Part shown: positions 3,173 to 31,256 of the stretch, piece after piece
Layout of the letters: each line of letters opens with the position of its first letter
Numbering within the stretch: position 1 is the stretch's first letter
Source of the DNA: Gemmata obscuriglobus
Lineage (GTDB): Bacteria; Planctomycetota; Planctomycetia; Gemmatales; Gemmataceae
Length of the DNA stretch: 32,000 bases
Reading direction: 5' to 3'
Assembly: GCF_008065095.1 (NCBI RefSeq)
Contig: NZ_CP042911.1
Span: forward strand, 390,001 to 422,000
Notes under the pieces: generated by a model
Database searches by the model: none
The model's input: only the letters and a program-made list of their open reading frames with translations
What the model was told of the DNA's origin: nothing
Made by a program: the position numbers and the translations under genes

Positions 3173-3862
3173 CTATCCGACCTTGCCGCAGTCGCTGATG
3201 GTGACCTTGGCGGATGTCTTCCCGCTCCGCGAGCCGACGGCCTCGATCTTCTTGACCACGTCGTAGCCCGTCACAACCTGCCCGAAAACGACGTGCTTCC
3301 CGTCGAGGTGTGGTGTCGCGGCGGTGCAGAGGAAGAACTGGGAGCCGTTCGTGTTCGGGCCGGCGTTCGCCATCGAAAGGGTGCCGCGGCCGAAGTGCTT
3401 GCCCGCCTTGCCCTGGAAGGTCTCGTCGTCGAACTTGCCGCCGTAGATCGACTCACCGCCGCGGCCGTCGCCGGAGGTGAAGTCGCCCCCCTGGCACATG
3501 AAGCCCGGGATCACGCGGTGGAACGACGAACCCTTGTAAGCCAGTGCCGCTCCGGCCTTGCTCTTGGTGCCGACGCACAGTTGCAGGAAGTTCTCGGCGG
3601 TTTTGGGGCACGTGTCGGCGAACAGCTCCATCTCGATTCGCCCGGCCGGCTTGCCGTCGATGGCGATCTCGAAGAACGCCTTGGGGTTCTTCGGGTTCAC
3701 GGCGTGGAAGGGCTTGTAATCGTCGCCGAGGAGCCCCCCGCGCTCGGGCGCCGCGGAGCGACCGCCGTCGGCGTCCGGCCAATTTGTCGTACACGCGGGC
3801 AGAACCGCGACGCAGGCCAACAAAACGGCTCGACGCAGAAGAATCATGGGCCGGTGGGTCAT
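3173..3862 (-). CDS. Cyclophilin-type peptidyl-prolyl cis-trans isomerase, CypA-like, probably a lipoprotein
   Basis: [45 protein letters not shown] and LDGKHVVFG are near-identical to eukaryotic cyclophilin A motifs. The N-terminus [24 protein letters not shown] looks like a lipobox. Alternative ATG starts lie at 3880 and 3847. Confidence 0.9.
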
Positions 3863-3991
3863 GGCGACCTCCACAAACATCGGATCGGGGCGCTGCGCCC
3901 GTGAAACTGCGGCGTGTACTGCTGGACGGGAGGCCGGTCAAGCGGAGTTCAGTGGTTTCAAGTTCGGGCCGCGCAGCGATGTGCGGGTTCT

Positions 3992-25462: not shown

Positions 25463-25726
25463 ATGATTTTGGTAGTGCCTGAGGGCCGAGCCGTGCCGAA
25501 CGCGCAACCGATCGTCGTCCAGGTGACCGTCTCGGTCACCGCGCTGGTGTACCCCGAGCCCGAGGCGGGGGGGTACTCGGCCGCGGTGCCGGCGCTGCCG
25601 GGGTGCTACACCGAGGGCGAGACGCTCGACGAGGTGCGGGCCAACCTGCGCGAGGCCGCCGAGGCGTGGCTCGCGGCGGCGCACGACCACGCGTCCCACG
25701 CCCCGCGGCGCGAGGGAGAGGCATGA
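25463..25726 (+). CDS. hicB: HicB-family antitoxin (UPF0150)
   Basis: GGYSAAVPALPGCYTEGETLDEVRANLREAAEAWL is the HicB N-domain pattern. An alternative GTG lies at 25493. The stop overlaps the hicA start (ATGA). Confidence 0.8.
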   Translation: MILVVPEGRAVPNAQPIVVQVTVSVTALVYPEPEAGGYSAAVPALPGCYTEGETLDEVRANLREAAEAWLAAAHDHASHAPRREGEA

Positions 25727-25929
25727 AGCGGATGTTCGGGTCGCAGATGTGTCAGTCGTTGGAGAGCCGGGGGTGGGTGCTGGTACGCGTGTCCGGAGTG
25801 CATCACATTTACCGGCACCCGACGAGTCAGCGTTACACGATCGTCCCCGTTCGCCGCAGCAAGCCGATGAAGCCCACCACGCAGCGGCACCTCGCCCGCG
25901 ACCTCACGCCGCTCATCGACGAGTTGTGA
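25723..25929 (+). CDS. hicA: HicA-family mRNA-interferase toxin
   Basis: The 68-aa product carries LESRGWVLVRVSGVHHIYRHP...TIVPVRRSK...TQRHLARDL, which is HicA/YcfA-like (G-x-H-H ... VP). Confidence 0.8.
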   Translation: MKRMFGSQMCQSLESRGWVLVRVSGVHHIYRHPTSQRYTIVPVRRSKPMKPTTQRHLARDLTPLIDEL

Positions 25930-25950: not shown

Positions 25951-26493
25951 TTACTTCTTGTCCGTCAGCCTGCCGGTGATGCCGGACACGCTCGCGCGGG
26001 TCGCACGGATGCGGTCGAGCAGGTTCTGTTTGGCGATGCTGGCGGGGTCCAGCGGGAGCCCGGACACGGAGGGCGACGGCCCCTTCGCGTCCCCCGCGAG
26101 TTTCGCCGCTTCTGCCTTCTCCTCTTGCGTCTCGCCCTTCGACAGCCGGTCCTCGGCGTCCACGAACCCCATTTCGCCGTACATCTGCTTCAACTCGCCG
26201 ACGCGCACCACTCGCTCAAGGCGGATGTACCCGATCTCGTCGTAGGGCACGAAGAACGCGCGGCCCTCGTCGGTCGTACCCCCCTCGCGCCCGCGGAACA
26301 CCAAGTAGGTCGGTTCGAACCGAACGACCACCTCGACCGAGAGGACGAACTGGTTCCGCAGAACCAGGTTCATCTGCGGGTGCGACACCTCCGGGACCCG
26401 CTTGAACATCTCGACGCAGTCTTCGCGGCGCACGTCGGCCTCCTCCGGGGTTCCGTAACTCGGACACAGAATCCGAACGAAGGCACGCCCCAC
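25951..26493 (-). CDS. Hypothetical protein (last gene of the kinase/ECF-sigma strand block)
   Basis: Composition is coding-like with no recognised domain. Candidate starts are the GTG at 26493 or the ATG at 26409 (MFKRVPEV). The C-terminal third is acidic/Lys-rich and low in complexity. Confidence 0.55.
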   Translation of the reverse strand: MGRAFVRILCPSYGTPEEADVRREDCVEMFKRVPEVSHPQMNLVLRNQFVLSVEVVVRFEPTYLVFRGREGGTTDEGRAFFVPYDEIGYIRLERVVRVGELKQMYGEMGFVDAEDRLSKGETQEEKAEAAKLAGDAKGPSPSVSGLPLDPASIAKQNLLDRIRATRASVSGITGRLTDKK

Positions 26494-26545
26494 ACGGGTT
26501 CGGATCTCGTGCGTTCTCGTTCCGATTTCCCGCCGCCGGGCGGGG

Positions 26546-27256
26546 TCAGTCGCGCGTCACTTCGAGCGCCTGGGGCGGTTGGGTGAACCGGCGGTACAGC
26601 CACACCTGCGAGGCGCCGGCCACGAGCCCGCCCGCCGCACACACCACGCGCCAGTCGAGCAGCCGTTCGAGCGGGCCTTTCGGCTCCGGTCGCAGGAAAG
26701 GGACCCTGGGATCGTCCTCGCGCAGCGCCGCAGCTCGGGCCGACCCGGCGTCCTCGAACACACTCAGCGTCAGAGCGAGAACGGCCGTGCCCAATAGCGA
26801 GCCGAGCAGCAGCAACAGAGGGGGACGGGCGAGCGCCCAGGGGTCCCGTTGGTACGGTTGGAGCCGGTACCCGTCGCCGAGCCGCCGCCAGAACTTGGTG
26901 AAGCACATGTCCGCGGCTTCCGGTGTCGCGAACACCACCGCCAGCCCGCTCGTGCCGAGACCGCCGTCCACGTACTCGCCGGTCAGAACGTTCCGCAGCA
27001 AGTCGAGCCTGAGCCGGCGGACCGCGATCAGTTCCACGACCACCGCGAGCGGCCCAAGCAGTTCGTCCAGATTGCCCCCGTTTTCGATCGCGGCGACCAG
27101 TTCGGCTTTCGGCGCGCCCGACAGGGGCGCCAAGTACAGACGGGTGGCGGTGAGCACGACGAGCGAGTGCGAACTCACGTCCGGGTGCGCCCACACCCGC
27201 CGGCGGGTGGCACCGGGAAGGGTCGTGTCGAGTATTATTTCGCCGGGAGCGGCCAT
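26546..27256 (-). CDS. Hypothetical membrane protein: cytoplasmic PH/GRAM-like N-domain plus two TM helices
   Basis: The ATG at 27256 gives MAAPGEIILD. The TM segments are PPLLLLLGSLLGTAVLALTLSVF and VVCAAGGLVAGASQVWLY. No HxxxCxxC anti-sigma motif is present. Confidence 0.6.
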   Translation of the reverse strand: MAAPGEIILDTTLPGATRRRVWAHPDVSSHSLVVLTATRLYLAPLSGAPKAELVAAIENGGNLDELLGPLAVVVELIAVRRLRLDLLRNVLTGEYVDGGLGTSGLAVVFATPEAADMCFTKFWRRLGDGYRLQPYQRDPWALARPPLLLLLGSLLGTAVLALTLSVFEDAGSARAAALREDDPRVPFLRPEPKGPLERLLDWRVVCAAGGLVAGASQVWLYRRFTQPPQALEVTRD

Positions 27257-27433
27257 TACGGTTGGCGGCGTAACGCGGAACGATCTCACGTGTAACCGGT
27301 AGCACGCCGGGGGGGGCGGGTCAAATGGAGGGGAGCGGGGAGTTCAGGCATGATCCGGGCGTGCCGCTACCGCTACTGGCCGCGCCGGCAGGCAGTAGCG
27401 GCTAACTCGAAACGACCGGAAGCCGGTTGATTC

Positions 27434-28066
27434 TCATTCCGCCTGGAGTTCCGGAAACACCGCGGGAGACAGTTTCGCGGCGACGAGGTGATCGTGCAGC
27501 CGCTTCTTGACCTGGAACTTCAGGTTCGCAATGTCCTGCTCCGTCCGCTTCAAACGCGTCGCCACGTCGGCGTTGCCCCAGCCCTTCACGTACAGCAGCT
27601 CGAGCGCCATCACCTTCGGCCACTCGCCCTTGGTCTTGAAGTCGCGCACGAGGTCGCGGAGCGCCTGGCCCAGCGCGGCCTCCTCGCGCTCCCGCTGCTC
27701 CGAGCTGCGGGCCAGCGTCGAGGCGCCGCGCTGCCGGTCGTCGGCCCGCGACATCGCCTCGTCCTCGCTGTCGGTGCCGGTCTGGAACCGGCTCCGGCCC
27801 ATCTTCCGCAACTGGTCTGTCACCTTGTGGGCGGCGATGGTGAACAGCCAGGTCTGCAGGTCACGCTTGTCGTCGTAGTTCACCAGGCTGTTGCTGAACC
27901 CGATGAACGTTTCCTGCACCACGTCCTCGACCGAAGCGTGGTCCTTGAGCCGGCGCCGCACGTACGCCGTGAGCCGGCCCCGGTACCGCTTGTCCAGTTC
28001 GGCCCACGCGGTTTGGTCGTTGGCCCGCACCCGGGCGATGAGCAACCGGTCGGATTCGGTGATCAT
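27434..28066 (-). CDS. ECF-type RNA polymerase sigma-70 family factor
   Basis: Region 2 is VEDVVQETFIGFSNSLVNYDDKRDLQTWLFTIAAHKVTD. Region 4 is ALELLYVKGWGNADVATRLKRTEQDIANLKFQVKKRL. A ~55-aa Ser/Thr/acidic linker joins them. The start is the ATG at 28066. Confidence 0.9.
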   Translation of the reverse strand: MITESDRLLIARVRANDQTAWAELDKRYRGRLTAYVRRRLKDHASVEDVVQETFIGFSNSLVNYDDKRDLQTWLFTIAAHKVTDQLRKMGRSRFQTGTDSEDEAMSRADDRQRGASTLARSSEQREREEAALGQALRDLVRDFKTKGEWPKVMALELLYVKGWGNADVATRLKRTEQDIANLKFQVKKRLHDHLVAAKLSPAVFPELQAE

Positions 28067-28078
28067 GAGCAACCGGTG

Positions 28079-28106
28079 TTTGGTACTTGGTGCTTGGTGC
28101 TTGGTG
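28079..28106. repeat. Heptanucleotide tandem repeat in the sigma-factor leader
   Basis: On the plus strand TTTGGTA is followed by CTTGGTG x3. On the coding (minus) strand this reads CACCAAG x3 plus TACCAAA, ending about 12 nt upstream of the sigma ATG. Confidence 0.6.
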
Positions 28107-28169
28107 CACGCCTCACCGGAAGCGGAAGCGGCACCGGGCACCAGAACACCGAACACTGGACACCAACCA

Positions 28170-28994
28170 CTATACGAGTACCAGCGCCGCCGCGGCCCCG
28201 GCGGCCAGCGCGGCGGCCCCGATCGCGAGCCAACTCGTCAGGTACCCGCGGGTCCACTCGTCGGCCCGGAGGAACAGGAACCCGGCCAGCGCGATCGCGG
28301 TCAGGGAGCCGAGCACCCGCAGCCCGCCCGCCACCCGCTCCTGGGTCCGCAGCTCGCGCACCTGGTCGGCCGTCACCTCCACGTCGTACTCGACGTAAAC
28401 CAGTTCCCCGGTAACTCCGTACCGGGCGAACGTGCTGGCCTCCTCGGCGGCCGGCGGACGCACGGTGCGGCTATCCTTGCGCAGGAACTCGTGGCGCACC
28501 TCGTTGGGCGCCACCTTGTGCCGCACCGGCGGGTCGAGTTCGGCGAGTCGCTTTTCGACCACCTCGCACGCCAGCATCAGGGCGTCCTCCTCGGCCTCTG
28601 CCTCGGTCGCGTACGGGATCGCGCTGCTCACACGCTCGCGGACCACGAGCGCCCCGATCCCGGGGCGGGGCGACGCCTTCGGCGCCGGGGCGGCCTTCAC
28701 AACCAAAACCGGCGGCGCGGGCGGGGCCGGCGGCGTGCCGCCCTTGGGCGCCACCGCCCGGCCGAGCAGCGTGTCCTTCCACGAGCGCCGGACGGCCAGC
28801 TCCGGGTGCGCGTCGGCCTGGGCTTGAGCGGCCCCCGCGACGCAGTCGGCCGCGAGCGCGCCGGCATCGCGCCGGGCGCGATCGGCCTTGCTCCCGGTCG
28901 CGCCGCCGGGCGGCGCGGGTTTCGCGCACGCGGGCAGCGCGAGGCACAGCCCGACCGTCGCCAGTCGGATCAGGTTCCGCCCCACACTCGTCAT
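28170..28994 (-). CDS. Lipoprotein with C-terminal TM helices (hypothetical), located between the kinase and the ECF sigma
   Basis: The ATG at 28994 gives MTSVGRNLIRLATVGLCLALPAC, a lipobox signal. The middle is Ala/Pro-rich, and the C-terminal hydrophobic segments are LGSLTAIALAGFLFL and WLAIGAAALAAGAAAALVLV. It is the last 274 codons of the 857-aa track ORF. Confidence 0.65.
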   Translation of the reverse strand: MTSVGRNLIRLATVGLCLALPACAKPAPPGGATGSKADRARRDAGALAADCVAGAAQAQADAHPELAVRRSWKDTLLGRAVAPKGGTPPAPPAPPVLVVKAAPAPKASPRPGIGALVVRERVSSAIPYATEAEAEEDALMLACEVVEKRLAELDPPVRHKVAPNEVRHEFLRKDSRTVRPPAAEEASTFARYGVTGELVYVEYDVEVTADQVRELRTQERVAGGLRVLGSLTAIALAGFLFLRADEWTRGYLTSWLAIGAAALAAGAAAALVLV

Positions 28995-29026
28995 GACGCG
29001 CCCCCTCCGTTGTTCGTTTCGGCCGC

Positions 29027-30637
29027 TCACGCGCGGGTCCGCGGCGGCGGGCCGGCCCACGGGCTGGCGACCTGCGCGGCCACCGCCGCGATCACCAGGA
29101 CCGCCACCCCGGTCATCGCGGGCGGCGCCTCGTGGGGCCGCAGGAACAGGAACACCACGCCCAGCAGCCCTGCCCAAAAGATCGGGACGAACCGGACCCG
29201 CTCGCGGCGCCGGTAGTCGGTCGCCCGCCACCACGGGCACAGCCCCACGGTGGCCCCGAAGTAGATCAGGTACCGCATCACGGTGCCGAGCGTGTCCTGT
29301 CCCAGCCGGTGCCCGGTGAACAGCACGACGTCGCGGGTGGAGGCGGCCGCGGTGCCCGTCGGCAGCGCCCACCCGTCGAGCCAGAACGCCAGAGCACCGG
29401 CCCCCAACCCCACGGCCGCCTGAACCGCGCGCCGCCCCCACGGGTTGGCCTCGCTCCGCTTCGGCAGCCGCCCCAGGACCATCACCGCCCACGCCAGCGC
29501 TGTAGACAGCAGAAACACGCGCCCGAGCAGCGCCCACTGCACTGGCCCCTGGAACACCGCCCAGGGGGCCGTGCAGGCGGCGGCGACCAGCGGCGCCAGC
29601 GCCACCCCGCCGGCCAGTTCGGTCAGCCGGTCGCGGACGGTGCGCACCGGCGGCCACGCGGGCGGCACCTTCGGCGCTCGCGTGACCCTTGGCACCGGCA
29701 CCGGCACCGCGACCGGCCGCACCGCGTCGGGCGGGGCCAGGTCCAGCGGCTCGGGCATAACCGGGGTCGCCCGTGCGGGCGCCGGGAACGACGGGACCGG
29801 GAACTGGGTGGCGGTCGGCGCGTCGGCGCGTCGGCTGCCGGCGAACACCTCCTCGACCGCCCGCGCCAGCTCCGCGGCGGTCGCGTACCGCTTCGCGGGG
29901 TCCTTCTCTAGCGCCCGCCCGACCACCTCGCGGTACGGGGGTGGGAGCTTCGTCAGGTCCGGCGTCTCCGTGATGTGCTTCAGCAGCACCTCGTAAGGGG
30001 TCTCGCCGTTGAACGGCCGCAGCCCGGTCACCATCTCGTACAGGATGACGCCGCACGCGTAGATGTCGATGCTCGCGGTGTAGTTCCCGTTCTTGATCTC
30101 GGGCGCCATGTAGTAGGGCGTGCCCACCCCGCGGCTCAGCTCGTCGCGCTCGCTCCCGCTGATCCGCCGCGACAGCCCGTAGTCGCCGATCTTGAGCTGC
30201 CCGTGCTCGATGAAGATGTTCCCGGGCTTCAGGTCGCGGTGGACGACGCCCTGGTTGTGGAGGTAGCCGACCCCGCGGCACAGCGCCGCGAACCACTCGC
30301 GCACCACGGGCGTGGGGAGCCCGGTGGGGTGCTTGTTGATGACGTGCGCGAGTGACTCGCCGAACACGTACTCCATGACCACCCAGTGCTCCCCGCGGGG
30401 GTCGGTCCGCAGGTCGAACAGGTGTACCAGGTTCGGGTGCTTGAGGTTGAGGCAGTGGCCGACGCCGCGGAGTTCGGCGTCCGTGCTGTTGCACAGCAGC
30501 TTGAGCGCGACCTCCTTGCCGCCGTCGCTGACGGCGAAGTACACTTCGCCGAACGCGCCCCGGCCGACGCCCCGCTTGAGGGTGAACCCGTCGAGCGGGC
30601 GCTGCCCGGACCGGTAGGTGAACTTCATCGCGGCCAT
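29027..30637 (-). CDS. Ser/Thr protein kinase (Hanks type) with a polytopic C-terminal membrane domain
   Basis: GRGAFGEVY, VALK, HRDLKPGNIF, DYG and YYMAPE are present. A Pro-rich linker is followed by about six hydrophobic helices. The start is the ATG at 30637. Confidence 0.9.
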   Translation of the reverse strand: MAAMKFTYRSGQRPLDGFTLKRGVGRGAFGEVYFAVSDGGKEVALKLLCNSTDAELRGVGHCLNLKHPNLVHLFDLRTDPRGEHWVVMEYVFGESLAHVINKHPTGLPTPVVREWFAALCRGVGYLHNQGVVHRDLKPGNIFIEHGQLKIGDYGLSRRISGSERDELSRGVGTPYYMAPEIKNGNYTASIDIYACGVILYEMVTGLRPFNGETPYEVLLKHITETPDLTKLPPPYREVVGRALEKDPAKRYATAAELARAVEEVFAGSRRADAPTATQFPVPSFPAPARATPVMPEPLDLAPPDAVRPVAVPVPVPRVTRAPKVPPAWPPVRTVRDRLTELAGGVALAPLVAAACTAPWAVFQGPVQWALLGRVFLLSTALAWAVMVLGRLPKRSEANPWGRRAVQAAVGLGAGALAFWLDGWALPTGTAAASTRDVVLFTGHRLGQDTLGTVMRYLIYFGATVGLCPWWRATDYRRRERVRFVPIFWAGLLGVVFLFLRPHEAPPAMTGVAVLVIAAVAAQVASPWAGPPPRTRA

Positions 30638-30860
30638 TACGGACCCCTGCGGCGGGGGGCGCACCACCCCTCTCATTCCTAATGATTCGCACGCCCGGCA
30701 CAGACATTGGAACAAAAATCCGGCGCCGCGGCGGTGGGGCCATTATAACGCCTTCGCGCCCGCGCGGAGCAACACGCTTGCCCCGCGCGGGCCGCGGCGT
30801 AGAACACCGCCGGTCGGGTGCGGGCCGGGTGGCCCGCTCCCCACTCTCGGAGGACCGACG

Positions 30861-31256
30861 ATGAAGAAGCTCGCGCTCGCTGCGTTCGTGTTCGGGCTGG
30901 TCGGGATGCTCGCGCTCGCCGGCACCGCCCGCGCGGCGGACAAGAACGACGCCACCGGCACCTGGAAGGTCACCGCCAAGTTCGGCAAGAAGGACGTGGA
31001 ATCGACCTGGAAGCTGGAGAGCAAGGACGGCAAGCTCACCGGCACCGTTACGATGAACAAGGGGGAGGTCAAGATCGAGGACGGGAAGATCAAGGACGGC
31101 GAGTTCTCGTTCAGCGTGACCCGTGAGATCAAGGAGAACAAGGTGACCAGCAAGTACGCGGGCAAGGTCACCGGGGACACGATCAAGGGCACCGCGACCA
31201 CCAGCTTCAACGACAAAGAGTTCAAGAGCGACTTCGACGGCAAGCGCGAAAAGTAA
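30861..31256 (+). CDS. Small secreted beta-rich Lys/Thr/Gly-rich protein (hypothetical)
   Basis: The signal peptide is MKKLALAAFVFGLVGMLALAGTARA. The pattern GTWKV...GKLTGTV...IEDGKIKDGEFSF...YAGKVTGDTIKG follows. It is divergent from the kinase gene, with a 223-bp spacer. Confidence 0.7.
   Translation: MKKLALAAFVFGLVGMLALAGTARAADKNDATGTWKVTAKFGKKDVESTWKLESKDGKLTGTVTMNKGEVKIEDGKIKDGEFSFSVTREIKENKVTSKYAGKVTGDTIKGTATTSFNDKEFKSDFDGKREK

Follow-up and report, generated by a model that had tools for sequence, protein, structure and literature searches.

A kinase-linked ECF sigma factor locus of Gemmata obscuriglobus with a co-inherited lipobox protein family and a separable downstream gene pair

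Introduction

How is an extracytoplasmic function (ECF) sigma factor controlled when no anti-sigma factor can be recognized beside it? The question is raised by a 4.7-kb block of five genes on the minus strand of Gemmata obscuriglobus, within a window of 32,000 nucleotides (contig NZ_CP042911.1, positions 390,001 to 422,000; gene coordinates below are those of the window). The genes encode a Hanks-type Ser/Thr kinase, a lipobox protein (here lipo), an ECF sigma factor and two further proteins, p4 and p5. An earlier note on this DNA had suggested that the sigma factor and its partners might form an undescribed transmembrane sensing and tethering apparatus. Our analysis indicates that the block probably consists of two adjacent transcription units, whose boundaries we infer from sequence features, and that the first of these, kinase-lipo-sigma, is best explained as a planctomycete kinase-governed ECF system of the ECF61 type with lipo as a partner, a reading that we favor without regarding it as certain.

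To our knowledge, kinase-governed ECF sigma factors have been tested experimentally only in the proteobacterial group ECF43. The kinase-linked groups known from planctomycetes, ECF59-62 and ECF217, have been predicted by bioinformatics; among them, ECF61 was reportedly first defined by Jogler et al. in 2012.

Genetic units of the block

An open reading frame check of the window recovered all five head-to-tail genes on the minus strand, placed as the earlier note had read them. The window matches ABGO01000197.1 and, near 7.6 Mb, CP025958.1. The firm genetic units among them are kinase-lipo-sigma (unit 1) and p4-p5 (unit 2).

30637-27434, minus strand: unit 1, genes for the kinase, the lipobox protein and the ECF sigma factor
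27324-25951, minus strand: unit 2, genes for p4 and p5

The repertoire of genes that travel together was characterized in a genome scan centered on sigma, which gave eight close orthologues, and in a metagenome scan centered on p5, which gave 59 loci with p5 identities from 79% down to 36% and in which all five proteins were searched by tblastn. Kinase and lipo genes were present in all 14 sigma loci with enough upstream sequence, at identities down to 46 and 29%, respectively. The p4 gene was directly upstream of p5 in 32 of the 38 loci with enough sequence. The connection between the two units was looser. Six of the eight loci in the genome scan had the order kinase-lipo-sigma-p4-p5, the sixth being cut by a contig end after p4, and the sigma genes of the other two loci (L013 and L014) were without p4 or p5 despite several kilobases of downstream sequence. 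A sigma orthologue was found upstream of the pair in 11 metagenome loci and was absent from 19 loci with at least 1.5 kb of upstream sequence (19 of 30 informative loci). The p4-p5 genes are a Gemmataceae-wide pair that lies downstream of unit 1 in this lineage and is genetically separable from it. In a neighbor-joining tree of p5, the loci linked to sigma are scattered among the detached ones, and some of them branch deeply; therefore, the adjacency is old and has been broken repeatedly.

These patterns bear directly on the idea that the five proteins constitute one transmembrane sensing or tethering apparatus in which p4 and/or p5 is a non-canonical anti-sigma factor or a membrane tether. 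The conserved gene order is what would be expected of such an apparatus: it recurs in Gemmata, Frigoriglobus and related metagenome-assembled genomes (MAGs), so that it is no accident of a single genome, and it is kept in deep-branching loci and in all cultured Gemmataceae examined, including a Gemmata strain and Frigoriglobus tundricola. The frequent detachment of the pair and the two sigma orthologues without it are difficult to reconcile with a single apparatus, as is the absence of p4 from L047 and L063/L072, where sigma is followed by p5. Together with the promoter and fold evidence given below, this leads us to consider a five-protein apparatus improbable.

The loci differ in what surrounds the two units. 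In the metagenomic relative L018, sigma is separated from p4-p5 by 4.9 kb with inserted genes (L018 3351-7793), which include two extra kinase genes, one of them with DUF1080/3keto-disac_hyd, and a small DUF1080 gene. One p4 homologue was located behind giant cadherin-like genes. Members of the most divergent p5 clade (L067, L069-L071 and L075) have fabH (KAS III) directly after p5 on the same strand, and p4-p5 is embedded there among housekeeping lipid-synthesis genes.

The ECF sigma factor and its linker

The sigma factor and the part of it that is of most interest for its control are as follows, with residues given as amino acids (aa).

27434-28066, minus strand: ECF sigma factor WP_010045788.1, 210 aa, with sigma2 at aa 26-91, linker/extended sigma4.1 at aa 92-136 and sigma4 to about aa 193
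27704-27736, minus strand: linker motif R111-Q-R-G-A-S116-T117-L-A-R-S121, candidate phospho-acceptor region

The protein matched Sigma70_r2 (PF04542, E 1.3e-15), only weakly PF08281 (E 0.053), and TIGR02937 with 59.8 bits against a cut-off of 42.9 over aa 20-193. With sigma2 and sigma4 domains alone in about 200 aa it has the composition of an ECF (group 4) sigma factor. The family comprises more than 120 cluster representatives that are 73-91% identical and nearly all 207-216 aa long and, therefore, the length of the linker is conserved. The region-2 match ends at residue 91 and region 4 is projected to start near residue 137, which leaves a gap of about 45 aa in which Ser, Thr and acidic residues abound, in line with the Ser/Thr/acidic linker described in the earlier note.

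No anti-sigma factor was recognized next to sigma, as the earlier note had also found. Motif scans of lipo, p4 and p5 detected neither HxxxCxxC nor CxxC, and these three proteins had no match in Pfam (including its anti-sigma families), NCBIfam or PADLOC. None of the three has the N-terminal helical domain, with or without HxxxCxxC, of the Class I/ZAS anti-sigma factors, and profile searches with them against PDB sequences gave only chance-level matches. Ser/Thr kinase-linked ECF groups are typically without anti-sigma factors (PMC7826278). Because no anti-sigma factor is present, the kinase may control sigma directly by phosphorylation.

Two features of the sigma sequence suggest how such control might work. 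Region 2.2 reads S45-V-E-D48-V-V-Q-E, and the family consensus is [SAVTL][VTC][ED]D, with both acidic residues invariant in an alignment of orthologues down to 53% identity. ECF43 sigma factors such as EcfP are without these acidic charges and regain one by phosphorylation of a Thr (PMC8999054, PMC13147305). In the sigma factor of G. obscuriglobus, unlike in ECF43 members, the acidic residues of region 2.2 through which sigma touches RNA polymerase are in place (E47 and D48 of SVED), and a "missing charge" switch as in EcfP, the system that the earlier note had cited, is therefore unlikely here. The second feature is the linker motif, D.RQR.AS[ST][LMI]AR[ST], which persists in orthologues as distant as 53% identity, against a background of variable linker sequence. 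EcfK of Xanthomonas is phosphorylated at T106 in the linker between sigma2 and sigma4 (PMC13147305). As EcfK needs this phosphosite, the linker motif is proposed as the target of the kinase: RQRxAS[ST]LARS is by analogy the most likely phosphosite, and the kinase would modify it in the 45-aa stretch between sigma2 and sigma4 much as T106 is modified in EcfK.

The kinase and the lipobox protein

Unit 1 begins with the kinase and lipo genes and contains three intergenic elements that could affect its expression.

29027-30637, minus strand: Hanks-type Ser/Thr kinase (Pfam Pkinase, E 4.9e-51)
28170-28994, minus strand: lipo, a conserved uncharacterized lipobox protein, starting 32 nt after the kinase stop
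30742-30747, minus strand: TATAAT within GTTATAATG, putative -10 element for transcription of kinase, lipo and sigma, some 108 nt ahead of the kinase ATG
30680-30725, minus strand: TTT-N6-AA-N17-CGAAT block in the kinase leader, with fixed spacing and no gaps between sub-blocks in 10 loci
28073-28166, minus strand: imperfect 94-nt hairpin of CACCAAG-type heptamer repeats in the lipo-sigma spacer, ending just before the sigma start

The kinase has all the hallmarks of the Hanks type, including the Gly-loop (GxGxxGxV as GRGAFGEV), the catalytic Lys (VALK), HRD, a DFG-type motif (DYG) and APE, so that its catalytic motifs are intact. The cytoplasmic kinase domain (aa 19-253) is followed by a Pro-rich linker and about six transmembrane (TM) helices at aa 338-525, four of them strongly and two more weakly hydrophobic by hydropathy, as the earlier note had described. 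Orthologues that are 46-96% identical are encoded at position -2 of sigma. The membrane domain of six helices has almost no extracytoplasmic loops.

The signal sequence of lipo ends in the lipobox L20-P-A-C23, in which the Pro at -2 is atypical; the lipoboxes of aligned orthologues fit L-x-[GA]-C, and AAC, VGC, GAC, SGC and GTGC were seen. Lipo thus has the L-x-[GAS]-C sequence of a bacterial lipoprotein, and its lipid modification is putative. The signal is followed by a variable Pro/Ala region, a charged domain that is conserved over about 110 aa and a hairpin of two C-terminal TM helices joined in the orthologues by a near-invariant loop, FLR(A/L)DEWT(K/R)GYLT. The signal, the two helices and the 32-nt gap to the kinase gene agree with the earlier description. 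The family forms 269 clusters at 50% identity, and searches of Pfam and of PDB sequences detected no relative.

From the lipobox and the positive-inside rule, the conserved domain of lipo is probably extracytoplasmic and solely a loop of about 9 aa would be inside. With just this loop exposed to the cytoplasm, lipo cannot sequester sigma there. As the kinase is without a sizeable extracytoplasmic part, we infer instead that lipo is a co-sensor of the kinase. Lipo would perceive an extracytoplasmic signal. Inside the membrane, the pair of helices at its C terminus and the short, invariant loop between them could reach the kinase.

The candidate -10 element in GTTATAATG kept its distance from the kinase start in the majority of orthologous loci, including those with kinases that are just 60% identical, and was degenerate in the two most distant ones. 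The TTT-N6-AA-N17-CGAAT block was matched in a position weight matrix (PWM) scan of all loci solely upstream of the kinase, and no further targets of this kinase-leader motif were found in that scan. The block is a candidate for a second promoter, possibly of ECF type and autoregulatory, or for a protein-binding site. The hairpin in the lipo-sigma spacer had a folding energy of -47.5 kcal/mol (z -3.8) that was reached by none of 200 shuffles.

These elements are the basis of another explanation, in which the kinase does not act on sigma, the amount of sigma is set by its own synthesis through the leader elements and the spacer hairpin, and kinase and lipo signal elsewhere. A sigma factor whose acidic RNA polymerase contacts are intact should be intrinsically active, the kinase leader has conserved elements and, in the window genome, a strong hairpin stands directly before the sigma start. 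The strict linkage of kinase, lipo and sigma across 46-100% identity and the conserved Ser/Thr motif in the sigma linker are not expected from this explanation; ECF43 provides an experimental precedent for kinase action, and loci differ in whether the spacer forms a hairpin. Control by synthesis alone is accordingly given little weight here, and direct control of sigma by the kinase is preferred.

Several other candidates in unit 1 were rejected. Spacer repeat hairpins of different sequence, significant like that of the window, were found in L018 and L026 and were missing from the other loci; the hairpin is therefore regarded as lineage-specific rather than as a conserved regulator. A structured RNA in the kinase leader was rejected because RNAalifold predicted no pairs and no Rfam match was obtained. 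A kinase-lipo fusion (P0482) was not accepted as Rosetta-stone evidence, since its junction looks like Arg-rich read-through in the wrong frame.

Some Frigoriglobus-like genomes have one or two extra genes between lipo and sigma (L010 8913-9878, also L012 and L020). They encode proteins of about 145 aa with two TM helices and a helical C-terminal domain and without a Pfam match. These genes are absent from the window and are possibly an added regulator.

The hairpin after sigma and the p4 promoter

The division of the block after the sigma gene is marked by two elements.

27370-27402, minus strand: terminator-like hairpin, 32 nt after the sigma stop, with no U tract
27298-27324, minus strand: putative p4-p5 promoter TTGACC-N14-TGCTACC, with a -35 element, a 17-nt spacer and a TG-extended, TA-starting -10 element

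The hairpin had a folding energy of -23.8 kcal/mol (z -2.66), a value that 2 of 200 shuffled sequences also attained. Most other loci have hairpins of unrelated sequence after the sigma stop as well, five of them with energies between -46 and -103 kcal/mol. The earlier note had suspected a split of the block at this point; the hairpin is real, other genomes have equivalents, and a conserved candidate promoter begins 45 nt downstream of it.

The promoter is the stronger evidence for the split. Its 27-nt consensus, TTGACC-N14-TGCTA(C/G)C, matched the window once, where 0.03 matches were expected. Exactly one exact match was found in each of 26 loci, and close variants covered most of the others. 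The motif was located 63-109 nt upstream of p4, including in loci without a sigma gene nearby. These observations suggest that p4-p5 is promoted separately from unit 1.

The same motif could be read in another way, as the target promoter of the ECF sigma factor (TTGACC-N17-TA), with p4-p5, and perhaps also a gene for a secreted protein at 30861-31256, as its regulon. ECF sigma factors commonly control their neighbors, a target promoter would explain why p4-p5 is so often adjacent to sigma, and the adjacency is old on the p5 tree. Moreover, the promoters on the two sides of unit 1 are similar, TTGACC-N17-TAC before p4 and TTGCCC-N16-TAG before the upstream gene. Matches to a relaxed form of the motif were few, three across the window and a handful over 550 kb. 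Besides the two flanking promoters, the only one in the window precedes a cyclophilin gene 24 kb away (3173-3880, minus strand) whose product has an N-terminal extension; this could be an envelope-folding gene. The geometry of the motif, TTGACC and a 17-nt spacer, is nevertheless that of a sigma-70 housekeeping promoter and is without the usual AAC...CGT of ECF promoters. The motif is also absent upstream of the kinase-sigma operon, which excludes autoregulation through it, it is fully conserved in loci without sigma nearby, and in its relaxed form it precedes a few unrelated genes, such as fabH in L069. A sigma-dependent regulon is therefore unlikely, if less so than the other alternatives considered here, and separate promotion of p4-p5 remains our preferred explanation. 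A generic promoter/terminator scan missed both promoters because their -10 elements are without the final T.

The intergenic regions have further peculiarities. Near-perfect hairpins of 90-170 nt, built of short tandem repeats and with energies of -56 to -103 kcal/mol, follow sigma in L008 (10634-10778), L026, L010 and L012; such hairpins look like a general Gemmataceae class of intergenic palindromic elements or terminators. The spacer of the p4 promoter contains a poly-C run (27305-27318, minus strand) that counts 8 C both here and in ABGO01000197.1 and 7 C in CP025958.1 (L001 10748-10760). The change from 8 to 7 C shortens the spacer from 17 to 16 nt; either slipped-strand variation or an error in sequencing the homopolymer could account for it.

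On the other side of unit 1, the secreted-protein gene is divergent from the kinase gene and is tandemly duplicated in L010 and L020.

30861-31256, plus strand: gene for a secreted Lys/Thr-rich protein of 131 aa with a weak, sub-threshold Ig-like Pfam match
30778-30802, plus strand: conserved promoter-like site TTGCCC-N16-TAGAAC of this gene

The p4 and p5 proteins

The products of unit 2 are a membrane protein and a soluble protein.

26546-27256, minus strand: p4, 236 aa, with a cytoplasmic PH-like domain at about aa 14-135, a TM hairpin (aa 148-166 and about 203-223) and a C-terminal strand
25951-26433, minus strand: p5, soluble, 160 aa, with a GTG start at 26433 derived from an alignment of 34 homologues

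The AlphaFold 2 (AF2) model of p4 (predicted local distance difference test, pLDDT, 87; predicted TM-score, pTM, 0.70) consists of a beta-sandwich with a C-terminal helix, followed by a helical hairpin. Foldseek matches were dominated by PH, split-PH, PTB and FERM-F3 domains, with a best E of 2.9e-3 and TM-scores to the target of up to 0.68. The PH/GRAM-like protein with two TM helices proposed by the earlier note is thus borne out at the level of the predicted fold. The p4 family has at least 131 proteins and no Pfam match.

The start of p5 had been left open, with a length of about 150-180 aa; the range was correct, and the start is now settled by the conserved N terminus MRRE[DE]C and by the motif GGAGGAGG 5 nt upstream. 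Spacers between p4 and p5 are usually 0-50 nt, with GGAGG before p5. Residues 1-97 were modeled with pLDDT >90 as an Sm-like small beta-barrel composed of a helix and a five-stranded bent sheet. The barrel contains an invariant loop, FRGREGG[TS][TS]DEGR, and is followed by a Pro-rich linker that is disordered and by a conserved helix at the C terminus, DPASIAKQNLLDRIRA. Nearly all of the top 50 Foldseek matches were Sm/LSm/Hfq-fold chains (E 0.01-0.1), and p5 has 435 homologues.

The predicted folds are shared with well-known proteins, but p4 differs from PH-like, PTB and FERM-F3 domains in that its domain precedes a TM hairpin, and p5 differs from Sm, LSm and Hfq proteins in being without the Sm2 motif position and in having the extra C-terminal helix. 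Neither protein has sequence similarity to any entry of Pfam or PDB. The likeness is at the level of the modeled fold only and implies no shared function. By the same models, p4 and p5 resemble no known anti-sigma fold.

These models complete the case for and against a five-protein apparatus. In its favor, no classical anti-sigma factor is present, p4 is predicted to place a peptide-binding type of fold (PTB/FERM-F3-like) at the membrane, and p5 combines an amphipathic helix, conserved at its C terminus, with an invariant loop that is rich in Thr and is possibly a kinase target. A docking function can be imagined on this basis, although it is a doubtful one: PH-like p4 and Sm-like p5 would be a non-helical tether of sigma, or a substrate or adaptor of the kinase, that is released or modified by kinase and lipo. 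It is just as doubtful that the GG-T-T-DEG loop and C-terminal helix of p5 serve such a tether or adaptor. If true, this reading would give a five-protein ECF control system unlike any described. However, p4-p5 is probably transcribed from a promoter of its own that follows a terminator-like hairpin, neither protein shows a motif or fold of the anti-sigma type, and ECF groups with a linked kinase are known to function with no such factor. The idea of a five-protein apparatus is mostly unsupported. The part of it that stands is the lipobox protein, which always lies between kinase and sigma; p4 and p5 are separable.

Several points nonetheless weigh against our interpretation of the block as two units with an ECF61-type system in the first. 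Some of the 19 loci without sigma are near-duplicates, and about 13-14 distinct lineages remain. The five-gene order is also found in the deep-branching loci L063 and L065, with sigma factors 53-56% identical, and a long-lived five-gene adjacency can itself hint at a functional link. The hairpin after sigma has no U tract and, in its wider context, outperforms shuffles by no more than a modest margin (z -1.7). The fold matches of p4 and p5 are consistent, yet their E-values are weak. Lastly, ECF61 membership rests on the published description, and ECF59, with its six-TM kinases, longer linker and kinase at +1, is the alternative.

In G. obscuriglobus, a toxin-antitoxin gene pair converges on p5.

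25466-25929, plus strand: HicB-HicA toxin-antitoxin pair

Other Gemmataceae, among them the cultured Gemmata strain and F. tundricola, have a convergent NTP_transf_4/Hexapep (GlmU-like) sugar-nucleotidyltransferase gene at this place. The presence of HicAB instead of the GlmU-like gene points to a local event in G. obscuriglobus, either an insertion or a rearrangement.

Significance

What is new at this locus is the co-inherited lipoprotein family at position -1, the linker motif of the sigma factor, the map of promoter and terminator candidates, and the separability and predicted folds of p4-p5. The kinase itself carries no sensor domain, and its sensor outside the cytoplasm is probably the lipoprotein. 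The lipoprotein provides an experimental handle, as do the Ser/Thr motif in the linker and the promoter and terminator candidates, and a first experiment on a kinase-ECF system outside ECF43 becomes easy to design. The downstream p4-p5 should not be assumed to be parts of the system and are worth study as a separate pair that is found throughout the Gemmataceae.

Comparison with known kinase-linked ECF groups

The locus most closely resembles ECF61, which the supplementary text of the re-classification, in the parts available, describes as confined to Planctomycetes, with a kinase that is usually at -2 and has at least five TM helices, no anti-sigma factor, a "longer sigma4.1" and no reported conserved autoregulatory or target promoter (Casas-Pastor et al., 2021). 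The source organism is a planctomycete, and all named homologues are from Gemmataceae or planctomycete MAGs. The kinase is encoded two genes upstream on the same strand and has about six hydrophobic helices, an arrangement that was the same in the 14 informative loci, and no anti-sigma factor is co-encoded. The "longer sigma4.1" would correspond to the 45-aa stretch with its conserved motif, which was measured here between domain matches rather than on a reference ECF alignment. The sigma factor is most likely a member of ECF61, as judged by this description and not by the group hidden Markov model (HMM), whose trusted threshold is 166.6 bits (Casas-Pastor et al., 2021). Its cluster members carry no ECF group names, and neither WP_010045788 nor its peptide strings were found in the re-classification supplementary tables, some of which were available in part. 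As G. obscuriglobus is represented in those tables, the protein may be a founding sequence of ECF61.

In the parts available, the ECF61 description is silent on the gene at -1, which has no Pfam domain, on the linker motif and on the pair at +1/+2. The gene at -1 of this ECF61-type locus belongs to a strictly co-inherited lipoprotein family with a lipobox and a TM hairpin, which does not appear in that portion of the published description.

ECF59 and ECF217 are likewise planctomycete groups linked to kinases. According to the available portion of their description, ECF59s1 kinases have six TM helices and the ECF59 linker is about 6-10 aa longer than usual, as would fit this locus, but the kinase is at +1, downstream of sigma, in both groups and is two genes upstream here.

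The earlier note had likened the locus to ECF43. The genomic link of the sigma gene to a membrane Ser/Thr kinase stands, while ECF61 is the group that fits. ECF43 systems, such as EcfP/PknT of Vibrio parahaemolyticus and EcfK/PknS of Xanthomonas citri, also have an adjacent membrane Hanks kinase and no anti-sigma factor. ECF43 sigma factors have no DAED/DxxD motif and have a conserved Thr instead (QTTA/STTA), whereas the sigma factor described here keeps E47 and D48, with [ED]D invariant to 53% identity. Its kinase, which has six TM helices, is also different in having no extracytoplasmic domain of appreciable size, and the locus contains a lipoprotein gene in addition. Kinase-linked groups other than ECF43 keep a DAED-like motif and may work differently (PMC8999054). 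Because the acidic contact with RNA polymerase is kept, the mechanism of the planctomycete kinase-ECF systems must differ from that of ECF43, and the linker phosphosite T106 of EcfK is the closest mechanistic precedent for the linker motif of the G. obscuriglobus sigma factor.

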